Below are positions 2,850-47,367 of a stretch of DNA of 64,000 nucleotides, one piece after another. Source of the stretch: Alphaproteobacteria bacterium. GTDB lineage: Bacteria; Pseudomonadota; Alphaproteobacteria; Rs-D84. A model generated the notes under the pieces. The model had not been told where the DNA came from and ran no database searches. It saw nothing but the letters and a program-made list of their open reading frames with translations. Numbering within the stretch: position 1 is the first letter of the stretch; each line of letters opens with the position of its first letter. The stretch spans positions 3,586 to 67,585 of the forward strand of contig WQXN01000002.1 of the NCBI GenBank assembly GCA_009784815.1, given 5' to 3'. Both the position numbers and the translations under genes were made by a program.

Positions 2850-2966
2850 TTCTGGTGATTATGGCGTGGAAGCCACTCGCTGTTCCATTTCGAACCAGAC
2901 CGAGAAACTCCACAGCGCCGATGGTACTTTGTCTTAAGGCACGGAAGAGTAGGTCGTCGCCAGAAC
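2850..2966 (+). rRNA. rrf: 5S ribosomal RNA
   Basis: TCTGGTGATTATGGCGTGGAAGCCAC...CCGATGGTACTTTGTCTTAAGGCACGGAAGAGTAGGTCGTCGCCAGAAC has 5S helix I pairing (CTGGTG/CGCCAGA) and loop motifs. A ~240-nt spacer after the 23S carries a processing stem GTTCCGGGGCCTCGGCCCCGGAAC at 2795-2818. Confidence 0.85.
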
Positions 2967-2978
2967 AAAATCAACCTA

Positions 2979-3371
2979 TTGATTATAAAACCGAAAACAA
3001 TACTTTATGCTGGGCTTGCCCAGCACTTTTTTATTGATAAATTGCTGCTTGATTGTACAATCGCTTTTATGAATATAGAACAAGAACTTGAATATATTGA
3101 TTTCAGAATAAACGAACAGGGTCATGAAGTGCATTCAAGACCCAGGGTATCGGGTGACGTCAAAGCCGAATATTACGGCATAATGGGTGTTGATTTAAAT
3201 CAGCGCAATGCCATATTCTCAAGATGGTGCAACGATGCAAAAAACCCCTGGGGCTTCGGAGGCGGCTATGAAGCCGGTATAGATAATGATAAATATACAG
3301 GAGCCAAGGCCGAAACCATATTCAATCATCTAAAAGCCGCATACCAAGCGCAACTTGTTCCGACTATTTAA
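2979..3371 (+). CDS. hypothetical protein (start may be the internal ATG at 3069)
   Basis: ORF of 130 aa between 5S rRNA and a divergent gene; no recognisable motif. Confidence 0.3.
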   Translation: MIIKPKTILYAGLAQHFFIDKLLLDCTIAFMNIEQELEYIDFRINEQGHEVHSRPRVSGDVKAEYYGIMGVDLNQRNAIFSRWCNDAKNPWGFGGGYEAGIDNDKYTGAKAETIFNHLKAAYQAQLVPTI

Positions 3372-3441
3372 AACAAAATCCCGTACTCAAATCTTGTCCG
3401 CTGTAATGGGCGGGCGGATTATTGATCAGAATTATTTTAAT

Positions 3442-4275
3442 TTATTTTGAAATAAAATACTCGGTGGATTTGGCTAAAGCTTTCATAAGCTTTGGGAATT
3501 CGCGGTCATATAAATCTGTTCCTTCCGAAATTGCTTTCGCATGAAGTCCGGTTCCTTGCTGTTGGAATATATTTAGTATATCGTGCTTTGTTAGTCCGGG
3601 TTTATATTCAGCGCCCATCTTGCTGACAAACTTGTTATCCGCTTGCTGAGTATTTTGATCCGGCTCTAATTCGATATAAAAGCCGGAAAATTTCTTCGCC
3701 ACATATCTTAATTTCTGAAACTGTTCATCCTTTGGAATATACACGAAAGTGCCCAAGGAAATAAAGTTGGACGTTTTTGCGATACTATCTATTTTATCCC
3801 AAACGACTATTTTATGATTTTTATTTATACCAAGCTTTTGCGAAGTCTGCTGAAATATTTCATTGGTAGTGTCGTCTTTTTCTATGGAAAAAGTATTTAT
3901 AAAAAACGATTTGTATTCATCTAAAAAATGCACAAGCGGAGAAAAACCGCGTCCGAAATCCACAACATTTGGTAAAGCTTTGACCGAATGATAGGCTTCT
4001 GTGAATCTTTTTGCATAGTAGAAGCTGCGGTAGGGTACGATTTTATCGATGATTGCTGCTATCGCGGCCGGGGATTGTACTGCAAGCATGAATTTGCCCA
4101 GCGCTCCGAATCGTTTTTTGAATTGTGGTTTTCTTGCAACTTCAATCAGCGCGCGGTTCCAGTCTTTAAGCATATACATGGATCCCTGCGGCATTGGCTT
4201 CAAAATATCGCGGTATTTCATGATTCCGCCTTCCAGTCCAAGCGAACAACCAAGAGTAATATCCAAAGCCGACAT
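3442..4275 (-). CDS. hypothetical protein; weak methyltransferase-like glycine motif (VVDFGRGFS)
   Basis: 277-aa ORF; AAAGGA RBS 8 nt before ATG; own promoter-cassette copy upstream (4300-4328). Confidence 0.5.
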   Translation of the reverse strand: MSALDITLGCSLGLEGGIMKYRDILKPMPQGSMYMLKDWNRALIEVARKPQFKKRFGALGKFMLAVQSPAAIAAIIDKIVPYRSFYYAKRFTEAYHSVKALPNVVDFGRGFSPLVHFLDEYKSFFINTFSIEKDDTTNEIFQQTSQKLGINKNHKIVVWDKIDSIAKTSNFISLGTFVYIPKDEQFQKLRYVAKKFSGFYIELEPDQNTQQADNKFVSKMGAEYKPGLTKHDILNIFQQQGTGLHAKAISEGTDLYDREFPKLMKALAKSTEYFISK

Positions 4276-4299
4276 AGTCTGATCCTTTCTAGTTAATGC

Positions 4300-4328
4300 A
4301 TTCTACCTCCCCCATGAAGTTTTGTCAA
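4300..4328 (-). promoter_or_regulatory. Promoter cassette, minus orientation, locked variant: TTGACA-N17-TAGAAT with interrupted tract GGGGGAGG
   Basis: Revcomp of 4300-4328 = TTGACAAAACTTCATGGGGGAGGTAGAAT. -10 lies 18 nt upstream of start codon 4275. Arranged back-to-back with the 4344-4370 cassette. Confidence 0.45.
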
Positions 4329-4343
4329 GCGTAATTAAAATGC

Positions 4344-4370
4344 TTGACAAAATTCGGGGGGGGGTAGAAT
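4344..4370 (+). promoter_or_regulatory. Promoter cassette TTGACA-aaattc-G9-TAGAAT (spacer 15 nt)
   Basis: -35 at 4344-4349, G9 at 4356-4364, -10 at 4365-4370. Downstream UTR TAGAATGCGCTTATAAATAACTAAAAGGGTG...ATG is near-identical to the 5655-5690 UTR. Confidence 0.55.
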
Positions 4371-4400
4371 GCGCTTATAAATAACTAAAAGGGTGAAAAA

Positions 4401-4916
4401 ATGACAGATTCATACGAAGGTAAATACGTTAGTTTTACATACGGTCTGGACGATTCGGACGCGATCGCAAGAAAATATTACGGCGATCATTACGGCAAAT
4501 TCCCGAATTGGCTTCTTGCGGCGCGGACTTGCGACTTTCATCGATCCAGTTATGCGAAAAGAGCGGAAGAAATATTGCAAATCCAAGTATTGAGAGTGGC
4601 GAAGGAAAGCTTCACTGATCGCGGTATAACAAGACAGCCTATTCATGATCCGGAAAGCCTGTTTTTCTCGTGCCGTATAAAAACCGCTCGGGGTTTAAGT
4701 GCTTGGCATGGTATAGGCGCGCTTGATCTTGAAGATCGGGATTTTGCTGTTGACGCCGTATTCTGCGCGGCCAACTACATATCCGAGAGTTACGATGTTT
4801 ATAACGCGCTAGTTTCTTCGATAAGCGATCCTGATTATCCCGAAGGCGAAAAACATATAAGTAAGGAAATCCAAGTTCAAGAACTTGTCGGTATACTGAA
4901 AGAAGCTATCCGATAA
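4401..4916 (+). CDS. hypothetical protein (no signal peptide)
   Basis: 171-aa ORF with AAAAGGG RBS, downstream of poly-G promoter cassette, followed by a terminator. Confidence 0.55.
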   Translation: MTDSYEGKYVSFTYGLDDSDAIARKYYGDHYGKFPNWLLAARTCDFHRSSYAKRAEEILQIQVLRVAKESFTDRGITRQPIHDPESLFFSCRIKTARGLSAWHGIGALDLEDRDFAVDAVFCAANYISESYDVYNALVSSISDPDYPEGEKHISKEIQVQELVGILKEAIR

Positions 4917-4925
4917 TAAACATAC

Positions 4926-4950
4926 GCCCGGCTTTTGGCCGGGTGTTTTT
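4926..4950 (+). terminator. Rho-independent terminator
   Basis: GCCCGGC-TTTT-GGCCGGG stem-loop followed by TGTTTTTA. Confidence 0.55.
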
Positions 4951-4994
4951 ATCCCTTGATTTTTTTTCGCGCAAGGTATAACATCCCCACACGT

Positions 4995-5071
4995 GGCGGA
5001 GTAGCTCAGGTGGTTAGAGCGATGGAATCATAATCCACAGGTCGGGGGTTCGAGTCCCTTCTCCGCTACCA
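4995..5071 (+). tRNA. tRNA-Met (anticodon CAT). Elongator-type anticodon stem; could also be tRNA-Ile2 (lysidine).
   Basis: Cloverleaf GGCGGAG/CTCCGCT acceptor, TAGCTCAGGTGGTTAGAGC D-arm, anticodon loop AATCATAAT, GGTTCGAGTCC T-arm, encoded CCA. Confidence 0.85.
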
Positions 5072-5150: not shown

Positions 5151-5600
5151 ATGATTAGAAAAGCTACTATGGCGGATGTGCCCGCGGTGTTAGAGTTGGT
5201 AAACATGAACGCCAAGCAGGGACTGATGCTAAGCAAAAGTCCGTACGACATTTATCAGCGGATTTTTACGTTTTTTGTTTACGAAAAGGGCGGCCAAGTG
5301 GTCGGCTGCGTGCGGCTTCAACCTTTGTGGAAAGATATTGCTGAAATCGCGTCTTTGGCCGTGGCCGAAGATTTTCGCAATCAAGGCATAGGCAGAGAGC
5401 TGGTCCAAGTTTGCATGACCGAGGCCAAACGCGCCAAAATTCCAAGGATATGCACTTTGACCTACCAGTGCGAATTCTTCAAAAAATGCGGATTCAAGGA
5501 AGTCCCAAGGGAAACCCTGCCGCATAAATTCTTTGGCGATTGCCTGCGCTGCCCAAAGGTCGAATGCTGCGATGAATACGCCTTTATAATAGATCTATGA
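5151..5600 (+). CDS. GNAT-family N-acetyltransferase (short ArgA-like amino-acid acetyltransferase)
   Basis: 149 aa; acetyl-CoA binding motif RNQGIGRELV and GNAT beta-strand pattern; AAAGGATA RBS. Confidence 0.65.
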   Translation: MIRKATMADVPAVLELVNMNAKQGLMLSKSPYDIYQRIFTFFVYEKGGQVVGCVRLQPLWKDIAEIASLAVAEDFRNQGIGRELVQVCMTEAKRAKIPRICTLTYQCEFFKKCGFKEVPRETLPHKFFGDCLRCPKVECCDEYAFIIDL

Positions 5601-5629
5601 TAAAAATCCTAATTTAATACAAAAATTAC

Positions 5630-5660
5630 TTGACAAAACATCATGGGGGGGGGGTAGAAT
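5630..5660 (+). promoter_or_regulatory. Promoter cassette TTGACA-aaacatcat-G10-TAGAAT (spacer 19 nt)
   Basis: -35 at 5630-5635, G10 at 5645-5654, -10 at 5655-5660. UTR duplicated from the 4365-4400 copy. Confidence 0.55.
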
Positions 5661-5690: not shown

Positions 5691-6185
5691 ATGGCTTCAA
5701 TTATAGAAATTTTAATGGAAGAAATAGACAAAGAAATTATTTCCCTCGAGGATTCTATTAAAAACAACACAAGGGAAGCAAACAAGCAAGAGCGGAATAA
5801 TTTTTCTTACTGCCCCATAAAGGAAGCGACTGTTGTTATATCAACCAGCTTTTCAGTGCGTATAGCCGATTACAGAAAGGCGAAAGAAGAATTGGTCGGA
5901 TTTGACGAGGATAAGATCAATAATAACCTGTTTTCGATTGTTACTCTTCTTGATGTAAAGACCGACGAAACATTAAAATATCTTCTTGCCCCGGTATTGG
6001 GCGGAGAAACTATCACGATAGGCACCGAAAAAATAGACGTTGTGTCAAGCTCTTCGCCCTTGGGCAACGAGTTGCTGAATGCAGAGGCGTCCACCCTTGA
6101 AAAAGAAAATTTTGTGCAGCTGAGCAAAAAGTTAAATGGAATCAGATACAAAGTTTTGGGTATACAAAAGGCCGTGGCTAAGTAA
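5691..6185 (+). CDS. GreA/GreB-like (Rnk-like) C-terminal-domain protein, putative transcription factor
   Basis: 164 aa. C-terminal segment ETITIGTEKIDVVSSSSPLGNELLNAEASTLEKENFVQL...IRYKVLGIQ parallels the GreA FKBP-like domain pattern (TYRIVG..EAD...ISxxSPIARGLIGKEEDDVV...VEFEVLKI). N-terminal half is coiled-coil like. Confidence 0.4.
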   Translation: MASIIEILMEEIDKEIISLEDSIKNNTREANKQERNNFSYCPIKEATVVISTSFSVRIADYRKAKEELVGFDEDKINNNLFSIVTLLDVKTDETLKYLLAPVLGGETITIGTEKIDVVSSSSPLGNELLNAEASTLEKENFVQLSKKLNGIRYKVLGIQKAVAK

Positions 6186-9027: not shown

Positions 9028-9057
9028 TTGACAAAACGTCATGGGGGGGGGTAAACT
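9028..9057 (+). promoter_or_regulatory. Promoter cassette TTGACA-aaacgtcat-G9-TAAACT (spacer 18 nt)
   Basis: -35 at 9028-9033, G9 at 9043-9051; AAAGGGAA RBS before ATG 9091. Confidence 0.5.
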
Positions 9058-9090: not shown

Positions 9091-9771
9091 ATGAGCGATC
9101 AACACACGAAAGAGCAGGCACTTAATGAATTGGCGTATAAGCTTCGCGTGACTGCAAACGCAAGAACGTTCAAAGACGATATATTGTCGGCGACGCCGAA
9201 TAGGATTGGTTTTTCGGCCTGCTGCTTATGTGGCAAGGACGAATGCGATTGCGATAAGATAGAAAATAACCTCAGGGTCGAATACGTCAGGACTCTGCTT
9301 GAAATTGACCCAAGTCTTATACAGCTGACGCGCGGAGAATTGATGCCCGCCGACAAGCTGTGCGAAGACTGTCGCATATGCGAAGAATTGATCGATAATC
9401 CCGAAGACTGCCCTAGGCATGACGCTCCTTACAAAGTCGAATGCTATCATTCGTTCAGCCGCGGTATGGGACAGTTTGTCGCGCGCGCATGCGCGGGCAA
9501 ATTTGACGACGTTACGTTTGCAGAATATAATTTGAAAAGAGGCGTGGATGTCTGGGCAGTTTATGAACTTTATAATTCTATAGATTCATCGGTGCGCGAT
9601 AGTATAAGAAAAATAGTTGTTGGGTATTACCATATCAAGCTTGCCGATGGGACCAATCTTATGGGCGAAAGCGATGATATCGTGTCCTTGGTGCATGGTG
9701 CGTTTGCTCGGCAGCAGGGCATTCAAGGGCATCGTTTATTCAAAGCCGGACCCTGCCGCGGCAGCAAATAA
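9091..9771 (+). CDS. Cys-rich cytoplasmic hypothetical protein (14 Cys; CCLCGKDECDCD, CEDCRICE clusters). Possible metal-binding.
   Basis: 226-aa ORF; no signal peptide; behind poly-G cassette. Confidence 0.55.
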   Translation: MSDQHTKEQALNELAYKLRVTANARTFKDDILSATPNRIGFSACCLCGKDECDCDKIENNLRVEYVRTLLEIDPSLIQLTRGELMPADKLCEDCRICEELIDNPEDCPRHDAPYKVECYHSFSRGMGQFVARACAGKFDDVTFAEYNLKRGVDVWAVYELYNSIDSSVRDSIRKIVVGYYHIKLADGTNLMGESDDIVSLVHGAFARQQGIQGHRLFKAGPCRGSK

Positions 9772-10159: not shown

Positions 10160-12130
10160 CTATCCTCCGGACGGGGCGCCTCTGCTTCTGGTAGGAGTGG
10201 CCGCCACTGGAGCCGTCGGCGCGGAAGGAGCAGAGGAAGGTGCGGCAACCGGCGCTGAAGTTGGTGCGGGGGCAGACGGAGTCGAAAAAAAGGAGGCAGC
10301 ATCCAGCCGTTGTCCGCTATTTTGTCTTTCCCGCATCGCGTTCGCTTCGGCTGCGGACATATTATTCAAACCAGTGTCAGTTCGGGTTCCTGTAAACGTG
10401 CCCGTACCCCCCCCCACCGCTTCACTTGTCGTTGTGCTGCCGCCGCCGCTCGCGGCAACTTGATTTCTATTAGTTTCTCTATTCTGAAGAGCTATTTCTC
10501 GATTTTCTCCGGGTATTGATGTGATTTCAACTCGACCTTCTGCCTCTGGATTTAAAGCGCGATAGGTCGCCAAATTCGCCGCTGCATTATCAAAGTCGGC
10601 ATCAAATTGTGATTGGTCCGCTTGCGCTCTTGCAGCTGCCGCCGCTGCGGCTGCTCCGTTCATGGCGTCTGCATATCCGTCGGCTCCGCTGGCTCTGTTT
10701 GCGTTATCTATCGCCTCTTGTCCTCCGGTGCCGCCTGTATTGGTCCCTCTATCTCCGCGCGGTTGGATCAAAGCTTGTGGATCCGTTGGTTCGGCCGCAG
10801 AGGGCGATGATCCGGCACCGCCTTCGGGTGAAAAGGCTTCGATAGGAATGGCCTGTTGCGTTGAATCGAATTTTGTTTCTTCTTCTTTCTTGTCCAGCGC
10901 GCCGGCGCGTACGGCCGTGACAAGGCTTGCGGCTCCGACTCCAAGCCCCGCGCCAAGGAACGCCGCGCTTGCGCCTGCCGCGGTTACGTCGCGGTTGATC
11001 GCGTTCATAAGATACCTGGTTACGTCCACGCCGAACCATTCTTCTGTGCAAACAAAGTCGCCGCCCGGAGCGATCTTGCGCGAAGCCGGAGTGTATCTGC
11101 GCCCGTCCGCTTCAACCGAGAAGATCGCAGTGAAAGCGCATTCGCCGTTGCGATCGTCGAATACCGCCCCGACGGACGTGCACATATTGCGCATCGCGGG
11201 CATCATTGCGTCAAGCTCGGCCTGAAGCGCGTGTATTTGTTTTTCCCGCTCGACCCGCAGCGCCCCCATCATGTTCGTGAACCTGACTTGTAGATTGCTG
11301 TCGAACTGCCTGAACTCGTCATACACGGGCCGACATGCGGACAGGGCCTGGTTGATCCGCGCCTGCGTCACGCATCCGTTGAATCCGATCGCGACATGGC
11401 CAAGCAATGTTCCCGCCGCGCGCTGTGTCGCGCACTGGGTCTGCAAACAGCGCGAGTAAGCTTCGTTGCCGTTGATGATTTGTCCAAACAGCCATAGGCG
11501 CGCGTCGACTTCGACGTCGTCCCGTATTATTTTTCCATAAACGGAAAGCTCGGCTCCGGAACAATTGACCCGCGTGCGGCATCTGTTGAATCGTTCGCTC
11601 CATACTCCGTCGCCGTCGTTGAAGCATCTTTGCAGATTGTCCCCGCAGTCCTGTTTGACGCAGGCAAGAAGTTCGGTCGCGCACGGAGTGCGGTCGGTCG
11701 GATTTATCCTGCGCCTAAACTGTATCAAGGTTGCCTCGCGCCGCTCGCGGTCGCTTTGCGCTCCCAGCGCGCGCTCCCAAGCGTTGGTCCCGCCGCTGCG
11801 TCTGCCGCCGCTCATATCCTGCATGCGGGTTTTGATTCTGTCGGCGTTGGTTGTCGCCGTCGGCGGTTCTTCCGCAATTACTTCCGGTGCGTTAGCCTGC
11901 ACGACTTGCGCCGCGATAATTCCTGTGGGCGCAATACCCGGCGCCGCGCCGCGCGTAACAACGCCGCGCCCAGCGGTTGAGACTGTAGGCGCAGCACCTT
12001 CGGCGGGCGCTGTGGTTGTCGCCGGTATTCCGCGCGCCGCGCGTCCGGTTGGCGCGGGCGTGCTGGCGGATGCCGAAACCGCAATGGCGATCAAACCTGC
12101 CGATAAAAATTTTATGTATAATATTTTCAT
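10160..12130 (-). CDS. large secreted low-complexity protein: signal peptide, Pro/Ala/Thr linker, Cys-rich domain, glycine-zipper hydrophobic segment, poly-Ala and Ser/Pro/Ala tail
   Basis: 656-aa ORF. Signal peptide MKILYIKFLSAGLIAIAVSASA. Segment AAGASAAFLGAGLGVGAASLVTAV. Runs AAAAAAAARAQ and APAPTSAPVAAPSSAPSAPTAP. Start overlaps the upstream gene stop (ATGA). Contains a G9 tract. Confidence 0.6.
   Translation of the reverse strand: MKILYIKFLSAGLIAIAVSASASTPAPTGRAARGIPATTTAPAEGAAPTVSTAGRGVVTRGAAPGIAPTGIIAAQVVQANAPEVIAEEPPTATTNADRIKTRMQDMSGGRRSGGTNAWERALGAQSDRERREATLIQFRRRINPTDRTPCATELLACVKQDCGDNLQRCFNDGDGVWSERFNRCRTRVNCSGAELSVYGKIIRDDVEVDARLWLFGQIINGNEAYSRCLQTQCATQRAAGTLLGHVAIGFNGCVTQARINQALSACRPVYDEFRQFDSNLQVRFTNMMGALRVEREKQIHALQAELDAMMPAMRNMCTSVGAVFDDRNGECAFTAIFSVEADGRRYTPASRKIAPGGDFVCTEEWFGVDVTRYLMNAINRDVTAAGASAAFLGAGLGVGAASLVTAVRAGALDKKEEETKFDSTQQAIPIEAFSPEGGAGSSPSAAEPTDPQALIQPRGDRGTNTGGTGGQEAIDNANRASGADGYADAMNGAAAAAAAARAQADQSQFDADFDNAAANLATYRALNPEAEGRVEITSIPGENREIALQNRETNRNQVAASGGGSTTTSEAVGGGTGTFTGTRTDTGLNNMSAAEANAMRERQNSGQRLDAASFFSTPSAPAPTSAPVAAPSSAPSAPTAPVAATPTRSRGAPSGG
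10407..10415 (-). repeat. Homopolymeric G9 tract (C9 on + strand) inside the CDS 10160..12130, about 85 codons from its stop
   Basis: CCCGTACCCCCCCCCACCGC read directly; encodes ...AVGGGTGTF... Confidence 0.9.
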
Positions 12131-19804: not shown

Positions 19805-20410
19805 TTATTTCGTTGCATCTTGATTTGCTGTTAATCTTTTATACAGTCTGCAGTCGGGCAGCAATGACGCGGGTTCTTCAATCCACAGCTTTTGAAAATC
19901 GGGACAGTTTCTGTGCGTCATGATCTTGATCGTCTGCACAAGTTTATCAGCGGGAATCCGGGAAAGATCGGTGCCTGCGAATATATCGATCAATGCCGAG
20001 GCTCGTTTGCAGAACAAGCTGTCATTCCGGCCCTCGGTCGGAATTACAAGAACGTTGTTCACCATTTTGATGCGGGTCTGTTTGACTAAGGCTTTGTTTT
20101 CTTTGTGTGCCGTTATCGTCGCCGCGCGTATATGAGAGTGCGCGTTGGCGAACAAGCAAAGTCCGCTGCCGGTGTTTGATAATATGACGCCCAAAGTGTC
20201 GTCGAATTCTCCGACGTGCTTTGCGATTATGTCTCCGACGTGTTTGGCTTGGAAGTTTGCGATATTGTATTTTTGCGAATAGCTGTGGTGCGCGCCGATA
20301 TTATAAATCTCGTTAAAAACATAAGGATTTACCCAATCCATTAACCTGTCCGCGACGTGCGCGCTGCAATTAGTGGCGGCAATGTAAATGGTCGGTAGTC
20401 TGACTTTCAT
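19805..20410 (-). CDS. hypothetical protein (201 aa), cytoplasmic
   Basis: ORF downstream of minus-oriented poly-G cassette; no confident family assignment. Confidence 0.5.
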   Translation of the reverse strand: MKVRLPTIYIAATNCSAHVADRLMDWVNPYVFNEIYNIGAHHSYSQKYNIANFQAKHVGDIIAKHVGEFDDTLGVILSNTGSGLCLFANAHSHIRAATITAHKENKALVKQTRIKMVNNVLVIPTEGRNDSLFCKRASALIDIFAGTDLSRIPADKLVQTIKIMTHRNCPDFQKLWIEEPASLLPDCRLYKRLTANQDATK

Positions 20411-20437: not shown

Positions 20438-20467
20438 ATACTACCCCCCCCCATTAAGTTTTGTCAA
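20438..20467 (-). promoter_or_regulatory. Promoter cassette (minus) TTGACA-aaacttaat-G9-TAGTAT (spacer 18 nt). Its -35 overlaps the TGA stop of the upstream methyltransferase gene.
   Basis: C9 at 20444-20452, TGTCAA at 20462-20467, ATACTA at 20438-20443. Confidence 0.5.
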
Positions 20468-29217: not shown

Positions 29218-29246
29218 TTGACAAAACATCTCGGGTGGGGGAGAAT
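29218..29246 (+). promoter_or_regulatory. Promoter cassette, locked variant: TTGACA-aaacatctc-GGGTGGGGG-GAGAAT (spacer 17 nt)
   Basis: Same -35/spacer start/-10 'GAATGC' as the 5630 copy, but the G tract is interrupted by T. Confidence 0.45.
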
Positions 29247-29270: not shown

Positions 29271-29951
29271 ATGTCTGAGACTAAAACTCTTTACTTTGCT
29301 CCAAGCCCGTTCGCGGACAATTTTCCGATAGTGCGTGAAATCTGGAATGGTATGGAAAAAATGAATATCTCGAATCTTAAAATGGTTGGAATCCAGGCGC
29401 ATTCGAAAACCGAATACAGCATCATAAATTCACCCGATGATTTCAAACCGGTCCAAGGCATTCTTGATGTTCATATCGCGCCGATGCTTGCCCTTTGCTT
29501 GATAAATGACAATTGGCTGGCCGAATGCGAGGACGACAAGGGCGCGTATAAAGAGTGGAAGTTCGAGCCGTGGAAGAACCACGAAAGCGGAGTTTACTAT
29601 CCGCTTAAGGACGCGACGGAATTCGGTCTTGCCTTTGGCGGTTGCGGTCGTATGGGCGCGATGATGATCTATTCCTGGACCCGCTTCATGTCCGCATACG
29701 AACCGTCGCATACAATTCAAGTTACGCGTCAAAATTTTAATATCAACGGCCTGACCGCTGCCATAGCTCCAAGTTTTGATCCTGATATAAAACAAATAAT
29801 ACAATCCGCGCGCACTATGTTGACGACTGATTTTACAGGAGATGCTTTCGGTCTGGATGCAAATAAGGCGGATATAGGATTAACGATGGGCGGTCTTAAT
29901 CGGAACCATAGTCTTAAGTATTTTGGCATTGACCGCCTTCGCCAAATTTGA
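29271..29951 (+). CDS. hypothetical protein (start taken at MSETKTLYF; the six-frame ORF start at 29235 lies inside the promoter)
   Basis: AAAAAGGA RBS 7 nt before ATG 29271. Confidence 0.5.
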   Translation: MSETKTLYFAPSPFADNFPIVREIWNGMEKMNISNLKMVGIQAHSKTEYSIINSPDDFKPVQGILDVHIAPMLALCLINDNWLAECEDDKGAYKEWKFEPWKNHESGVYYPLKDATEFGLAFGGCGRMGAMMIYSWTRFMSAYEPSHTIQVTRQNFNINGLTAAIAPSFDPDIKQIIQSARTMLTTDFTGDAFGLDANKADIGLTMGGLNRNHSLKYFGIDRLRQI

Positions 29952-45437: not shown

Positions 45438-46197
45438 TTACGCTCACCTTTTTAATCAAAGCTGCGAACAGTCGGTTCGCAAGCAGGAATAATATTCCGC
45501 ACCACATGGCCAAATGCGCAGCCGTAAGTCCGGCCGCTGCCCATGAAAATTCGTAGGTAAGGCGCGATATTTCGTAAAGTGCCCATGGGAATGGGGTCCA
45601 ATAAGCAATGTTTGTCATAAATTGCGGATACACGGTAAGCGGAAAGAACAAGCCTCCGAAAAGGACCAGCAGTTTGTTCCATATTATGTAGATCGATTCG
45701 GTTTGCTGCATGTAAATACCAAGAAGGCTAATCACTACCTGCGCCAGAATTGCGAAAAACCCCGACATGATCATAAGAACAAAAATTATTCCTATGCCTT
45801 GCGGGGTGCTGGGCCAGCCTCCGCCTAAAATATATGATATAGCGATTCCGCCCGTCATTATGATCGGTAGTCGCGCACAGAACGATCCAAAATTTTCGGA
45901 TATCTTCTGGCTTAGATACGTGAATGGCCTCATAAGCGAATACCCTATGTTTCCAGTGCGTATGTCGTTCTGTATCTTAACCCTAAGCTTTTCATCTATC
46001 GAAAATATTATTGTTTCGCCCATCACGACATACCATACCATGTCCGCGGGCGCGAATCCCTGGTATCCTATCACAAGCCAAAGCTGCAAAGTGACGAACG
46101 CGACTACCGCAAGGAACAACAGCCTAAAGGCCATGATTGTTGGATTGCGCCATTGGTCTTCTGCCGCGGTCTTGAAAAACAACCAAAACTTTTTCAT
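45427..46197 (-). CDS. ABC-2 family transporter permease
   Basis: 256 aa, 6 TM; overlaps neighbours. Confidence 0.5.
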   Translation of the reverse strand: MKKFWLFFKTAAEDQWRNPTIMAFRLLFLAVVAFVTLQLWLVIGYQGFAPADMVWYVVMGETIIFSIDEKLRVKIQNDIRTGNIGYSLMRPFTYLSQKISENFGSFCARLPIIMTGGIAISYILGGGWPSTPQGIGIIFVLMIMSGFFAILAQVVISLLGIYMQQTESIYIIWNKLLVLFGGLFFPLTVYPQFMTNIAYWTPFPWALYEISRLTYEFSWAAAGLTAAHLAMWCGILFLLANRLFAALIKKVSVNGN

Positions 46198-47019
46198 TTC
46201 GAATATATGTCCCGTATTATTTCTTCCATGCTTGGTTCTTCTATCGATATGTCGGCGATCGCTTCCTTTTCGATTATTTCGCCCAAAGCCTTTTGAAGCG
46301 AAACGTCCCTGGTGTCGATTTCAAATCTTGATACTTGTCCCTTGGCGGTCGTGGCCGTGATGACTTTTTTCGACGGATACGTGGATTTTAATTTTTGAAT
46401 GCTTTCGTCTATTACGATTTTTCCGTGGTTTATTATGATCGCGCGCGTGCAGACGTCTTCTATATCTCCCGCATCGTGTGAAGTAAGGATTATAGTCGTA
46501 TCCTCCCTCTTGTTCATGTCTTTCAATACCTGCCGGATTTTGGCTTTGGCGACGACATCAAGGCCGATTGTGGGTTCGTCCAAAAATAAAACCTTCGGAT
46601 TGTGGAGTAGGGAGGCAACGATTTCGCACCGCATGCGTTCGCCAAGTGAAAAGGTGCGGACGGGACGATCCATAAGCTCGTCTATTTCGAAAATTTTCAC
46701 CAAGTCTTTAAGACGTTTTCTGAACGTCGAATCCGGTATGTTGTAGACGGCCGCCAGCAGTTCAAAGCTTTTGATCGGCGACAAATGCTGCCAAAGTTGG
46801 GAACGTTGTCCGAACACTGCGCCAATATTATACGTCAGCGTTTTTCTATCTTCCCATGGCGTAAGGCCGAATACGTTCGCCTTGCTTTATGCGGAACGAT
46901 AGTTTGTCGACGGCCTTTTTGATTTTGTATTTAGGAAAAAATATCGACCGCAAAAATCCTTGCTTCTTCTTTATGCGGAAGTACTTTGATAGGTTTTTAA
47001 CTTCTATTGCGTAAGACAT
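46194..47019 (-). pseudogene. ABC transporter ATP-binding protein disrupted by deletion + frameshift that removes Walker A
   Basis: N-terminal frame MSYAIEVKNLSKYF...LSFRIKQGE then RIRPYAMGR-stop at ~46855. The C-terminal frame (46194-46817) carries signature/Walker B ([32 protein letters not shown]) and H-loop. No GxxGxGKT anywhere. Confidence 0.55.
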
Positions 47020-47045: not shown

Positions 47046-47075
47046 ATCCTACCCCCCCCCTCAAATATAAGTCAA
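47046..47075 (-). promoter_or_regulatory. Promoter cassette (minus) TTGACT-tatatttga-G9-TAGGAT (spacer 18 nt)
   Basis: C9 at 47052-47060; AGTCAA at 47070-47075. Confidence 0.45.
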
Positions 47076-47090
47076 GATGTAATTAGTCAA

Positions 47091-47303
47091 TTATCTGACT
47101 GCTTGTGCGGTTGCCACGGCAAAGCGATCTTTTGCTGTCTGCAGCCTTAATTCAAAAATCTCAATAAAAAATTCCTTAAGTACGGTAGCTGTCTGCGCGT
47201 CCATATTTGCCGAGTTTTTAATAAATTCAAAATCCTTATTAATATCCGCCTGCGCCTTATCGCAATCCGCCAAGAATATTTCTGTTGCTTGTTTTTCTGT
47301 CAT
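47091..47303 (-). CDS. small hypothetical protein (70 aa from MTEKQATEIF). The six-frame ORF N-terminus MGGGRLAL is translation of the promoter G tract.
   Basis: ORF behind poly-G cassette. Confidence 0.4.
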   Translation of the reverse strand: MTEKQATEIFLADCDKAQADINKDFEFIKNSANMDAQTATVLKEFFIEIFELRLQTAKDRFAVATAQAVR

Positions 47304-47337
47304 CTGATTTGCCTTTATATACGGGTTTCGCAGTGCC

Positions 47338-47367
47338 AGTCTACCCCCCCCCATTTCATTTTGTCAA
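47338..47367 (-). promoter_or_regulatory. Promoter cassette (minus) TTGACA-aaatgaaat-G9-TAGACT (spacer 18 nt)
   Basis: C9 at 47344-47352; TGTCAA at 47362-47367. Confidence 0.5.

Follow-up and report, generated by a model that had tools for sequence, protein, structure and literature searches.

Spacer-length switches based on poly-G tracts are known mainly from a few pathogens. In Haemophilus influenzae, the divergent fimbrial promoters of hifA and hifB carry TA repeats that set the length of their spacer. In Treponema pallidum, a poly-G tract lies between the -35 and -10 hexamers of the TP0126 promoter, with an optimum at a 17-nt spacer (PMC7864442). Expression of porA is high with a tract of 11G, 2-fold lower with 10G and 13-fold lower with 9G (PMC3639595). 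The polyG tracts of Campylobacter jejuni have a modal length of nine, with G8 favouring insertions and G11 favouring deletions (PMC3401435). The pair of divergent promoters described here, from an uncultured alphaproteobacterium, is probably a new example of this already known type of bacterial on/off switch.

The analysis covered a stretch of 64,000 nt, hereafter called the window, from a MAG with the NCBI locus tags FWD33_01315 and FWD33_01320. The window is chromosomal, and contains 23S and 5S rRNA genes and five tRNA genes. Counts of uptake sequences ruled out Neisseria or Pasteurellaceae as its source. The promoter pair at 4300-4370 is flanked by ORFs of 277 aa (3442..4275, minus strand) and 171 aa (4401..4916, plus strand), and in both copies a short leader and an AAGG-type ribosome-binding site (RBS) lie between the promoter and the ATG of the ORF (Table 1). 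Direct reading of the sequence, together with a pattern search, agreed with the preliminary description on the geometry of the two copies, i.e. G9 with a 15-bp spacer in the plus copy and an interrupted tract with a 17-bp spacer in the minus copy. The head-to-head layout also stands, but the distance of 16 nt given between the copies is a difference of coordinates, and 15 nt (4329-4343) lie between the -35 hexamers. The pattern is far beyond chance: TTGACA-N12-22-TAGAAT has three matches in the window vs 0.08 expected, runs of G8 or longer give 15 overlapping matches vs 1.4 expected, and all the G/C runs of at least seven are 9 or 10 long. Inspection by eye of the region around 4150-4520 revealed no alternative -35/-10 hexamers that would give the plus gene a 16-18-bp spacer. 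The explanation that we favour, with a probability of roughly 0.6, is spacer-length phase variation of the porA/TP0126 type, in which the minus copy would be locked ON at 17 bp and the plus copy would be slippable and resting OFF.

Table 1. Features of the divergent promoter pair and the G-tract cassettes of the window.
Feature	Position	Strand	Details
Minus-gene leader and RBS (GAAAGGA)	4276..4299	-	Mirror image of plus leader
Minus-copy promoter	4300-4328	-	TTGACA-AAACTTCAT-GGGGGAGG-TAGAAT, spacer 17 bp
Minus-copy -10 hexamer TAGAAT	4300..4305	-	11/12 consensus match, spacer 17
Minus-copy interrupted G tract GGGGGAGG	4306..4313	-	8 nt, longest run G5; same in L001 and L002
Minus-copy fixed spacer part AAACTTCAT, 9 nt	4314..4322	-	
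Minus-copy -35 hexamer TTGACA	4323..4328	-	
AT-rich 15-nt segment GCGTAATTAAAATGC between -35 hexamers	4329..4343		Putative UP-element position for both promoters
Plus-copy promoter	4344-4370	+	TTGACA-AAATTC-GGGGGGGGG-TAGAAT, spacer 15 bp
Plus-copy -35 hexamer TTGACA	4344..4349	+	
Plus-copy short fixed spacer part AAATTC, 6 nt	4350..4355	+	6-nt class also in L018, L027
Plus-copy uninterrupted G9 tract	4356..4364	+	G9 also in L001, L002, L054
Plus-copy -10 hexamer TAGAAT	4365..4370	+	
Plus-gene leader and RBS (GCGCTTATAAATAACTAAAAGGGTG...)	4371..4400	+	23/30 nt identical to 5630-copy leader
Intrinsic terminator	4924-4946		Directly 3' of 171-aa ORF
Cassette 4328	4328	-	GGGGGAGG, spacer 17, interrupted
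Cassette 4344	4344	+	G9, spacer 15, slippable class
Cassette 5630	5630..5660	+	TTGACA-AAACATCAT-G10-TAGAAT, spacer 19, slippable class; upstream of 164-aa gene 5691-6185
Cassette 9028	9028..9057	+	G9, spacer 18, -10 TAAACT, slippable class; gene 9091-9771
Cassette 20467	20438..20467	-	G9, spacer 18, -10 TAGTAT, slippable class; RpiB-like gene 19805-20410
Cassette 29218	29218..29246	+	TTGACA-AAACATCTC-GGGTGGGG-GAGAAT-GC, spacer 17, interrupted by T; 226-aa gene 29271-29951, function unknown
Cassette 47075	47046..47075	-	TTGACT-N9-G9-TAGGAT, spacer 18, slippable class; upstream of disrupted (probable) ABC ATPase
Cassette 47367	47338..47367	-	G9, spacer 18, -10 TAGACT, slippable class; small ORF 47091-47303

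The pair belongs to a family. A relaxed scan of the window identified eight sigma-70-type promoter modules with a G tract abutting the -10 in 64 kb, six of the slippable class (five with G9 and one with G10) and two interrupted. In all eight cassettes the tract is located between -35 and -10, immediately adjacent to the latter, with its G's on the sense strand. The fixed segment of the spacer is only ever 6 or 9 nt long, and none of the slippable copies at G9 has the supposed 17-bp optimum. The interruptions of copies 4328 and 29218 differ, but in each the tract is 8 nt and the spacer 17 bp long; we take this as an internal hint that 17 bp is a geometry worth fixing. Copies 4328, 4344, 5630 and 29218 have (T/G)AGAATGC and AAAC(A/T)TC in common, and the 5630 cassette is the closest paralogue of the plus copy; the other four cassettes have only the functional elements in common. 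Nine copies of the sequence TTGACAAAA are present in the window: seven lie in cassettes and the rest in ordinary promoters, e.g. ahead of Lon. Apart from the weak RpiB-like one, the genes driven by the cassettes had no Pfam, NCBIfam or PADLOC match, and the two 226-aa proteins, when tested for paralogy, showed none.

Some of the surroundings deserve mention in their own right. The ABC ATPase gene behind the 47075 cassette (46194-47019, minus strand) lacks its Walker A region and has a frameshift between pieces of 57 aa and 207 aa; it is probably disrupted, so that this G9 promoter would drive a pseudogene, and the ABC-2 permease genes 3' of it are intact. At 47046-47367 (minus strand), two G9 cassettes are arranged in tandem on the same strand, 292 bp apart, and the first drives only an ORF of about 70 aa (47091-47303). 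G9 tracts are also present within reading frames. One, at 10407-10415 (minus strand), is a candidate tract for translational phase variation or switching of the C-terminus: it falls at codon 572 of ORF 10160..12130, which encodes a secreted Ala/Pro/Gly-rich protein of 656 aa, and G8 or G10 would cut off the last 70-85 residues of that protein. Another, on the same ENA contig about 6.3 kb past the end of the window (L067, 20646-20654), is located in a gene of 305 aa, some 50 codons from its stop codon; the neighbours of this gene are GT2, GT8 and Stealth (capsule/polysaccharide) genes. The divergent genes themselves, with an ORF of 100-130 aa, occupy a segment of about 2 kb (2966-4994) with a GC content of 0.43 vs about 0.50, located between the 5S rRNA (2851-2965) and tRNA-Met (4995-5071) genes. 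Since 5S rRNA and tRNA-Met genes are adjacent in many Alphaproteobacteria, this segment may have been inserted at the end of the rRNA operon.

Cassettes of the same design are found in a related genome. A scan of a genome collection with the pattern TTGACAAAAYNNNATG7 found three loci in the termite-gut alphaproteobacterial MAG Emb289P3bin118, which hold seven cassettes, all of them G9. Two of these (at L018 and L027) combine a 6-nt fixed segment with G9, like the plus copy, and promoters of this 15-bp class have a perfect TTGACA and a proper RBS-ATG. Locus L016 harbours a divergent head-to-head G9/G9 pair (C9 at 5547-5555, G9 at 5600-5608) that aligns with the window pair, the segment between its -35 hexamers being 14 nt long; its flanking genes, encoding a secreted Ala/Pro-rich protein and a small membrane protein, are unrelated to those of the window. 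L018 and L045 show a tandemly overlapping, duplicated -35 (TTGACTTGACA). The layout TTGACA-N9-G(7-17)-TAnnnT is also present in MAGs from a range of phyla (genome loci L003-L045 and metagenome loci L059, L061 and L062). Of the 44 cross-phylum matches, 39 have TAnnnT directly after the tract. The tract lengths were G7 (8 matches), G8 (1), G9 (17), G10 (10), G11 (3), G12 (4) and G17 (1). The matches span at least eight phylum-level groups, represented by Treponema, Clostridia, Christensenellaceae, Anaerolineales, Saccharibacteria, SR1, Gemmatimonas, Anaeroplasmataceae, an actinobacterium and others, and a conserved G7 version of the layout is shared by a group of SR1-like genomes. A search of metagenomes for the cassette pattern yielded six loci, none from the lineage of the window, which were informative about polymorphism at the class level only.

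The module consists, in order, of an AT-rich upstream segment, TTGACA, a fixed segment of 6 or 9 nt, the G tract, TAGAAT, a short leader and the AAGG-type RBS, and positions 4284-4393 represent a quasi-palindromic divergent control region formed by two inverted copies of this lineage-specific module. Under spacer-length phase variation, slipped-strand mispairing during replication would alter the G tract, and hence the spacer, by one bp per step; because the tract lies inside the -35/-10 spacer, such slippage would change the strength of the promoter. The fixed segment would set the default, with 9 nt giving a near-optimal 18 bp and 6 nt giving 15 bp and an OFF state. In the minus copy, a G-to-A interruption would have abolished slippability and frozen the promoter at an 8-nt tract and the 17-bp optimum; since its longest run is G5, this copy is a derivative and not a member of the slippable class. 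The plus copy has an uninterrupted G9, within the range regarded as hypermutable (about 8 or more), and would have kept this tract with a fixed segment shorter by 3 nt, such that G10 or G11 would be needed to reach 16 or 17 bp. In porA, a tract of 9G likewise corresponds to a 15-bp spacer, and by that analogy the plus promoter at G9 might be about an order of magnitude under its optimum. Rare G10 or G11 variants would raise its activity and would be biased to return toward G9. The predicted transcription starts, at about 4293 (minus) and 4377 (plus), are 84 bp apart and the -35 hexamers 15 nt apart, so the core polymerase contacts should be separate, with overlap of the upstream AT-rich regions, and the two promoters are probably largely independent. 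A shared-tract switch of the hifA/hifB type was considered and rejected, since each promoter has its own tract (4306-4313 and 4356-4364) inside its own spacer, and the -35 hexamers do not overlap. The ON and OFF assignments follow rules established in E. coli, Neisseria and Treponema, from which those of this organism may differ.

The 277-aa protein belongs to no Pfam or NCBIfam family. Its structure is predicted with confidence (pLDDT 86.6), the top fold matches in the PDB are SAM-dependent methyltransferases, the best being PPM1/LCMT with a TM score of 0.67, and the model assigns to the product of 3442..4275 a class I SAM-dependent methyltransferase fold. The protein family is small, with nine sequence clusters at 33-49% identity. 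Six distinct loci of homologues were inspected (L046/47, L048/49, L050-53, L064, L065 and L066), and the G tract was absent from all six; five have a plain TTGACA-N16/17-TAnnnT promoter, and at the remaining one the gene starts inside the upstream gene (operon). The cassette was thus not inherited together with this gene, for which constitutive consensus promoters seem to be the norm. A scan of metagenome proteins for relatives of the 277-aa protein gave no match, hence no strain series of the locus. The earlier view of the minus copy as a fixed, constitutive derivative is supported by its run of at most G5 and its 17-bp spacer, by the similar state of the 29218 copy and by the homologues that lack a G tract. 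We infer that the minus copy is locked ON, as a constitutive promoter for the methyltransferase-fold gene.

According to the main alternative, about nine G's are kept at the -10 for structure or for protein binding, at an essentially fixed length, by altering the DNA geometry, by placing a G at -14 that mimics half of an extended -10, or as the site of a regulator; the two copies would then simply be one strong and one weak promoter. The intergenic sequence is base-for-base the same in ENA ERZ27264051 (L001/L054) and in Logan SRR5215205 (L002), L002 crosses the plus-copy G9 unbroken, and neither tract of the pair differs in length among the three assemblies, all of one strain and differing only in rRNA. 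A static element would also fit the finding that 12 of 13 intact promoter tracts of the lineage have a length of exactly nine G's, whichever class of fixed segment (9 or 6 nt) they belong to, and the fact that sense-strand tracts are all G and never C. Against this, there are contig breaks in two independent Logan assemblies inside the G tract of the sibling 5630 cassette (5645-5654), a G10 in the window and in the ENA contig: Logan contig L002 (SRR5215205) ends exactly at ...CAT followed by G9, and Logan contig L055 (SRR10512954) starts exactly with G9 followed by TAGAAT. In the Logan assembly, a k-mer graph breaks within a tract only if the reads hold both G9 and a longer form, so these breaks are what a mixture of G9 with G10 or longer would produce in a de Bruijn graph; such a mixture could stem from homopolymer sequencing error and not from biology. 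In other organisms, promoters with this architecture that are otherwise identical in sequence have tracts differing by 3-4 G's (G6 vs G10 in L059 vs L061/L062; G10 vs G7 in L017/L021 and L011/L014), and orthologous or paralogous copies are up to 4 G's apart. Since the interrupted copies retain a working geometry although their tracts are impure, promoter function does not require a pure G9. G9 is also the modal length of the proven hypermutable tracts of C. jejuni, as a result of mutational bias, and a bias of that type between insertions and deletions would account for the near-universal G9 in either spacer class (PMC3401435). A static element therefore appears unlikely.

Two other explanations were considered. 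The plus copy could be a dead remnant, i.e. a duplicated promoter inactivated by the loss of 3 nt, with a 171-aa ORF that is non-functional or spurious. Such a view would suit the 15-bp spacer and several features of the ORF, which matched only itself among 5.8 billion and 1.84 billion sequences, with no credible homologue, and may for this reason not encode a functional protein; its codon score of 0.09 bits per codon is the weakest among the larger neighbours (only a 70-aa ORF scores lower), and its single-sequence AlphaFold model is of low confidence and uninformative (pLDDT 36). The sole remote match, P0011, was discarded as spurious, because it reflects a short motif that recurs 15 times in a Gram-positive LPXTG/Rib protein, which inflates the match. 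We nevertheless consider a dead remnant quite improbable, because the copy has two perfect hexamers, a G9 free of interruptions and a correctly spaced RBS, and its ORF is followed by a strong intrinsic terminator; moreover, 171 codons stay open in DNA of 45% GC, with codon usage positive only in their own frame, and the 15-bp geometry occurs at two promoters of the related MAG. The same observations do not sustain the label 'decayed' given to this copy in the preliminary description: with 6 nt plus G9 present at two other promoters, it falls into a recurrent class and is not a one-off product of decay. Judged by its sequence, the plus copy seems to be one instance of a recurrent low set-point; the analogy of porA 9G makes an off or weak state at G9 plausible, and the copy is probably a weak, default-OFF setting ahead of an orphan gene. 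As for the pair as a whole, positions 4284-4393 form a near-palindrome of about 110 bp from RBS to RBS, with nested inverted arms of 22 nt at 77%, 16 nt at 94% and, outermost (4284-4295 / 4382-4393), 12 nt at 83%. This near-perfect hairpin potential (-29.4 kcal/mol when folded as single-stranded DNA, z = -10.6), the nesting of the arms, the similar paired unit between unrelated genes in another species (L016) and the low GC of the surrounding 2 kb between the 5S rRNA and tRNA-Met genes would be in keeping with a Correia-like miniature inverted-repeat mobile element with outward promoters, inserted between the two genes. A mobile element is, however, very unlikely. In about 70 kb, a part of the genome, there is one paired unit and the six other copies are single half-modules, and a set of complete pairs sharing termini and target-site duplications is not seen there; function accounts for the symmetry of the palindrome, whose ends coincide with both RBSs and show no target-site duplication, and plasmids and phages (searched by BLAST) and viral contigs (scanned) gave no match. 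Thus, of the proposal that the cassette is a mobile or duplicated unit and not a vertically inherited one, mobility finds no support, and duplication is supported by the palindrome and by the leader of the plus copy, so similar to that of the 5630 copy, with downstream proteins (171 and 164 aa) that are unrelated and show no paralogy. An inverton was also rejected: with an inverted symmetry made up of two promoters that both face outward, flipping the region would have no effect, and no recombinase domain was present among the neighbouring genes scanned.

If spacer-length phase variation holds, the cassette family of this uncultured symbiont points to a contingency mechanism that could be common in gut commensals, with a tunable resting state; the features of the family include a locked derivative, a variant with a shifted set-point and a palindromic divergent pair. 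The G tracts would mark genes whose expression is probably heterogeneous within the population, and would also account for breaks in metagenome assemblies. The interrupted copies at 17 bp would serve as an internal calibration, from sequence only, of the tract length that corresponds to ON. A broader generalization is possible but rather doubtful, namely that uncultured gut symbionts use a standard, copyable 'G9 promoter module' in which the fixed segment presets the level of expression and a point mutation hard-wires the promoter ON at a tract of 8. If true, it would apply to the termite-gut alphaproteobacterial lineage of the window and, by convergence, to Treponema, Clostridia, Anaerolineae, Saccharibacteria and others, and the divergent pair would display two of the three states side by side.

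Among described systems, the Correia elements and other MITEs of Neisseria resemble the pair in that a short palindromic intergenic unit provides flanking genes with promoters, but here there are no terminal repeats apart from the functional elements, no target-site duplication and mostly half-copies. The hif genes of H. influenzae are likewise divergent, with a spacer length set by a repeat; however, one shared tract in overlapping promoters co-regulates both hif genes, whereas in the present pair each promoter has its own tract, so that the two genes are uncoupled, one being fixed and one variable. The genome of C. jejuni likewise contains many tracts (its phasome), most commonly nine nucleotides long, and the window has coding G9 tracts as well, but most of the C. 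jejuni tracts lie in reading frames and act by translational switching, while most of those in the window are in promoter spacers. In N. meningitidis, porA shares the G homopolymer in a sigma-70 spacer, and its expression is graded by one-base changes; it is nevertheless a single locus encoding a known surface antigen, unlike the eight modules in 64 kb found here, which precede mostly uncharacterised genes and include two fixed-segment classes (6 and 9 nt) as well as locked derivatives. Finally, T. pallidum carries poly-G at several paralogous promoters per genome (TP0126/tpr), and MAGs of gut Treponema have the exact TTGACA-N9-G9/10-TAnnnT layout; these belong to another phylum and precede unrelated genes, whereas the pair in the window is divergent and palindromic, with one member locked by an interruption.
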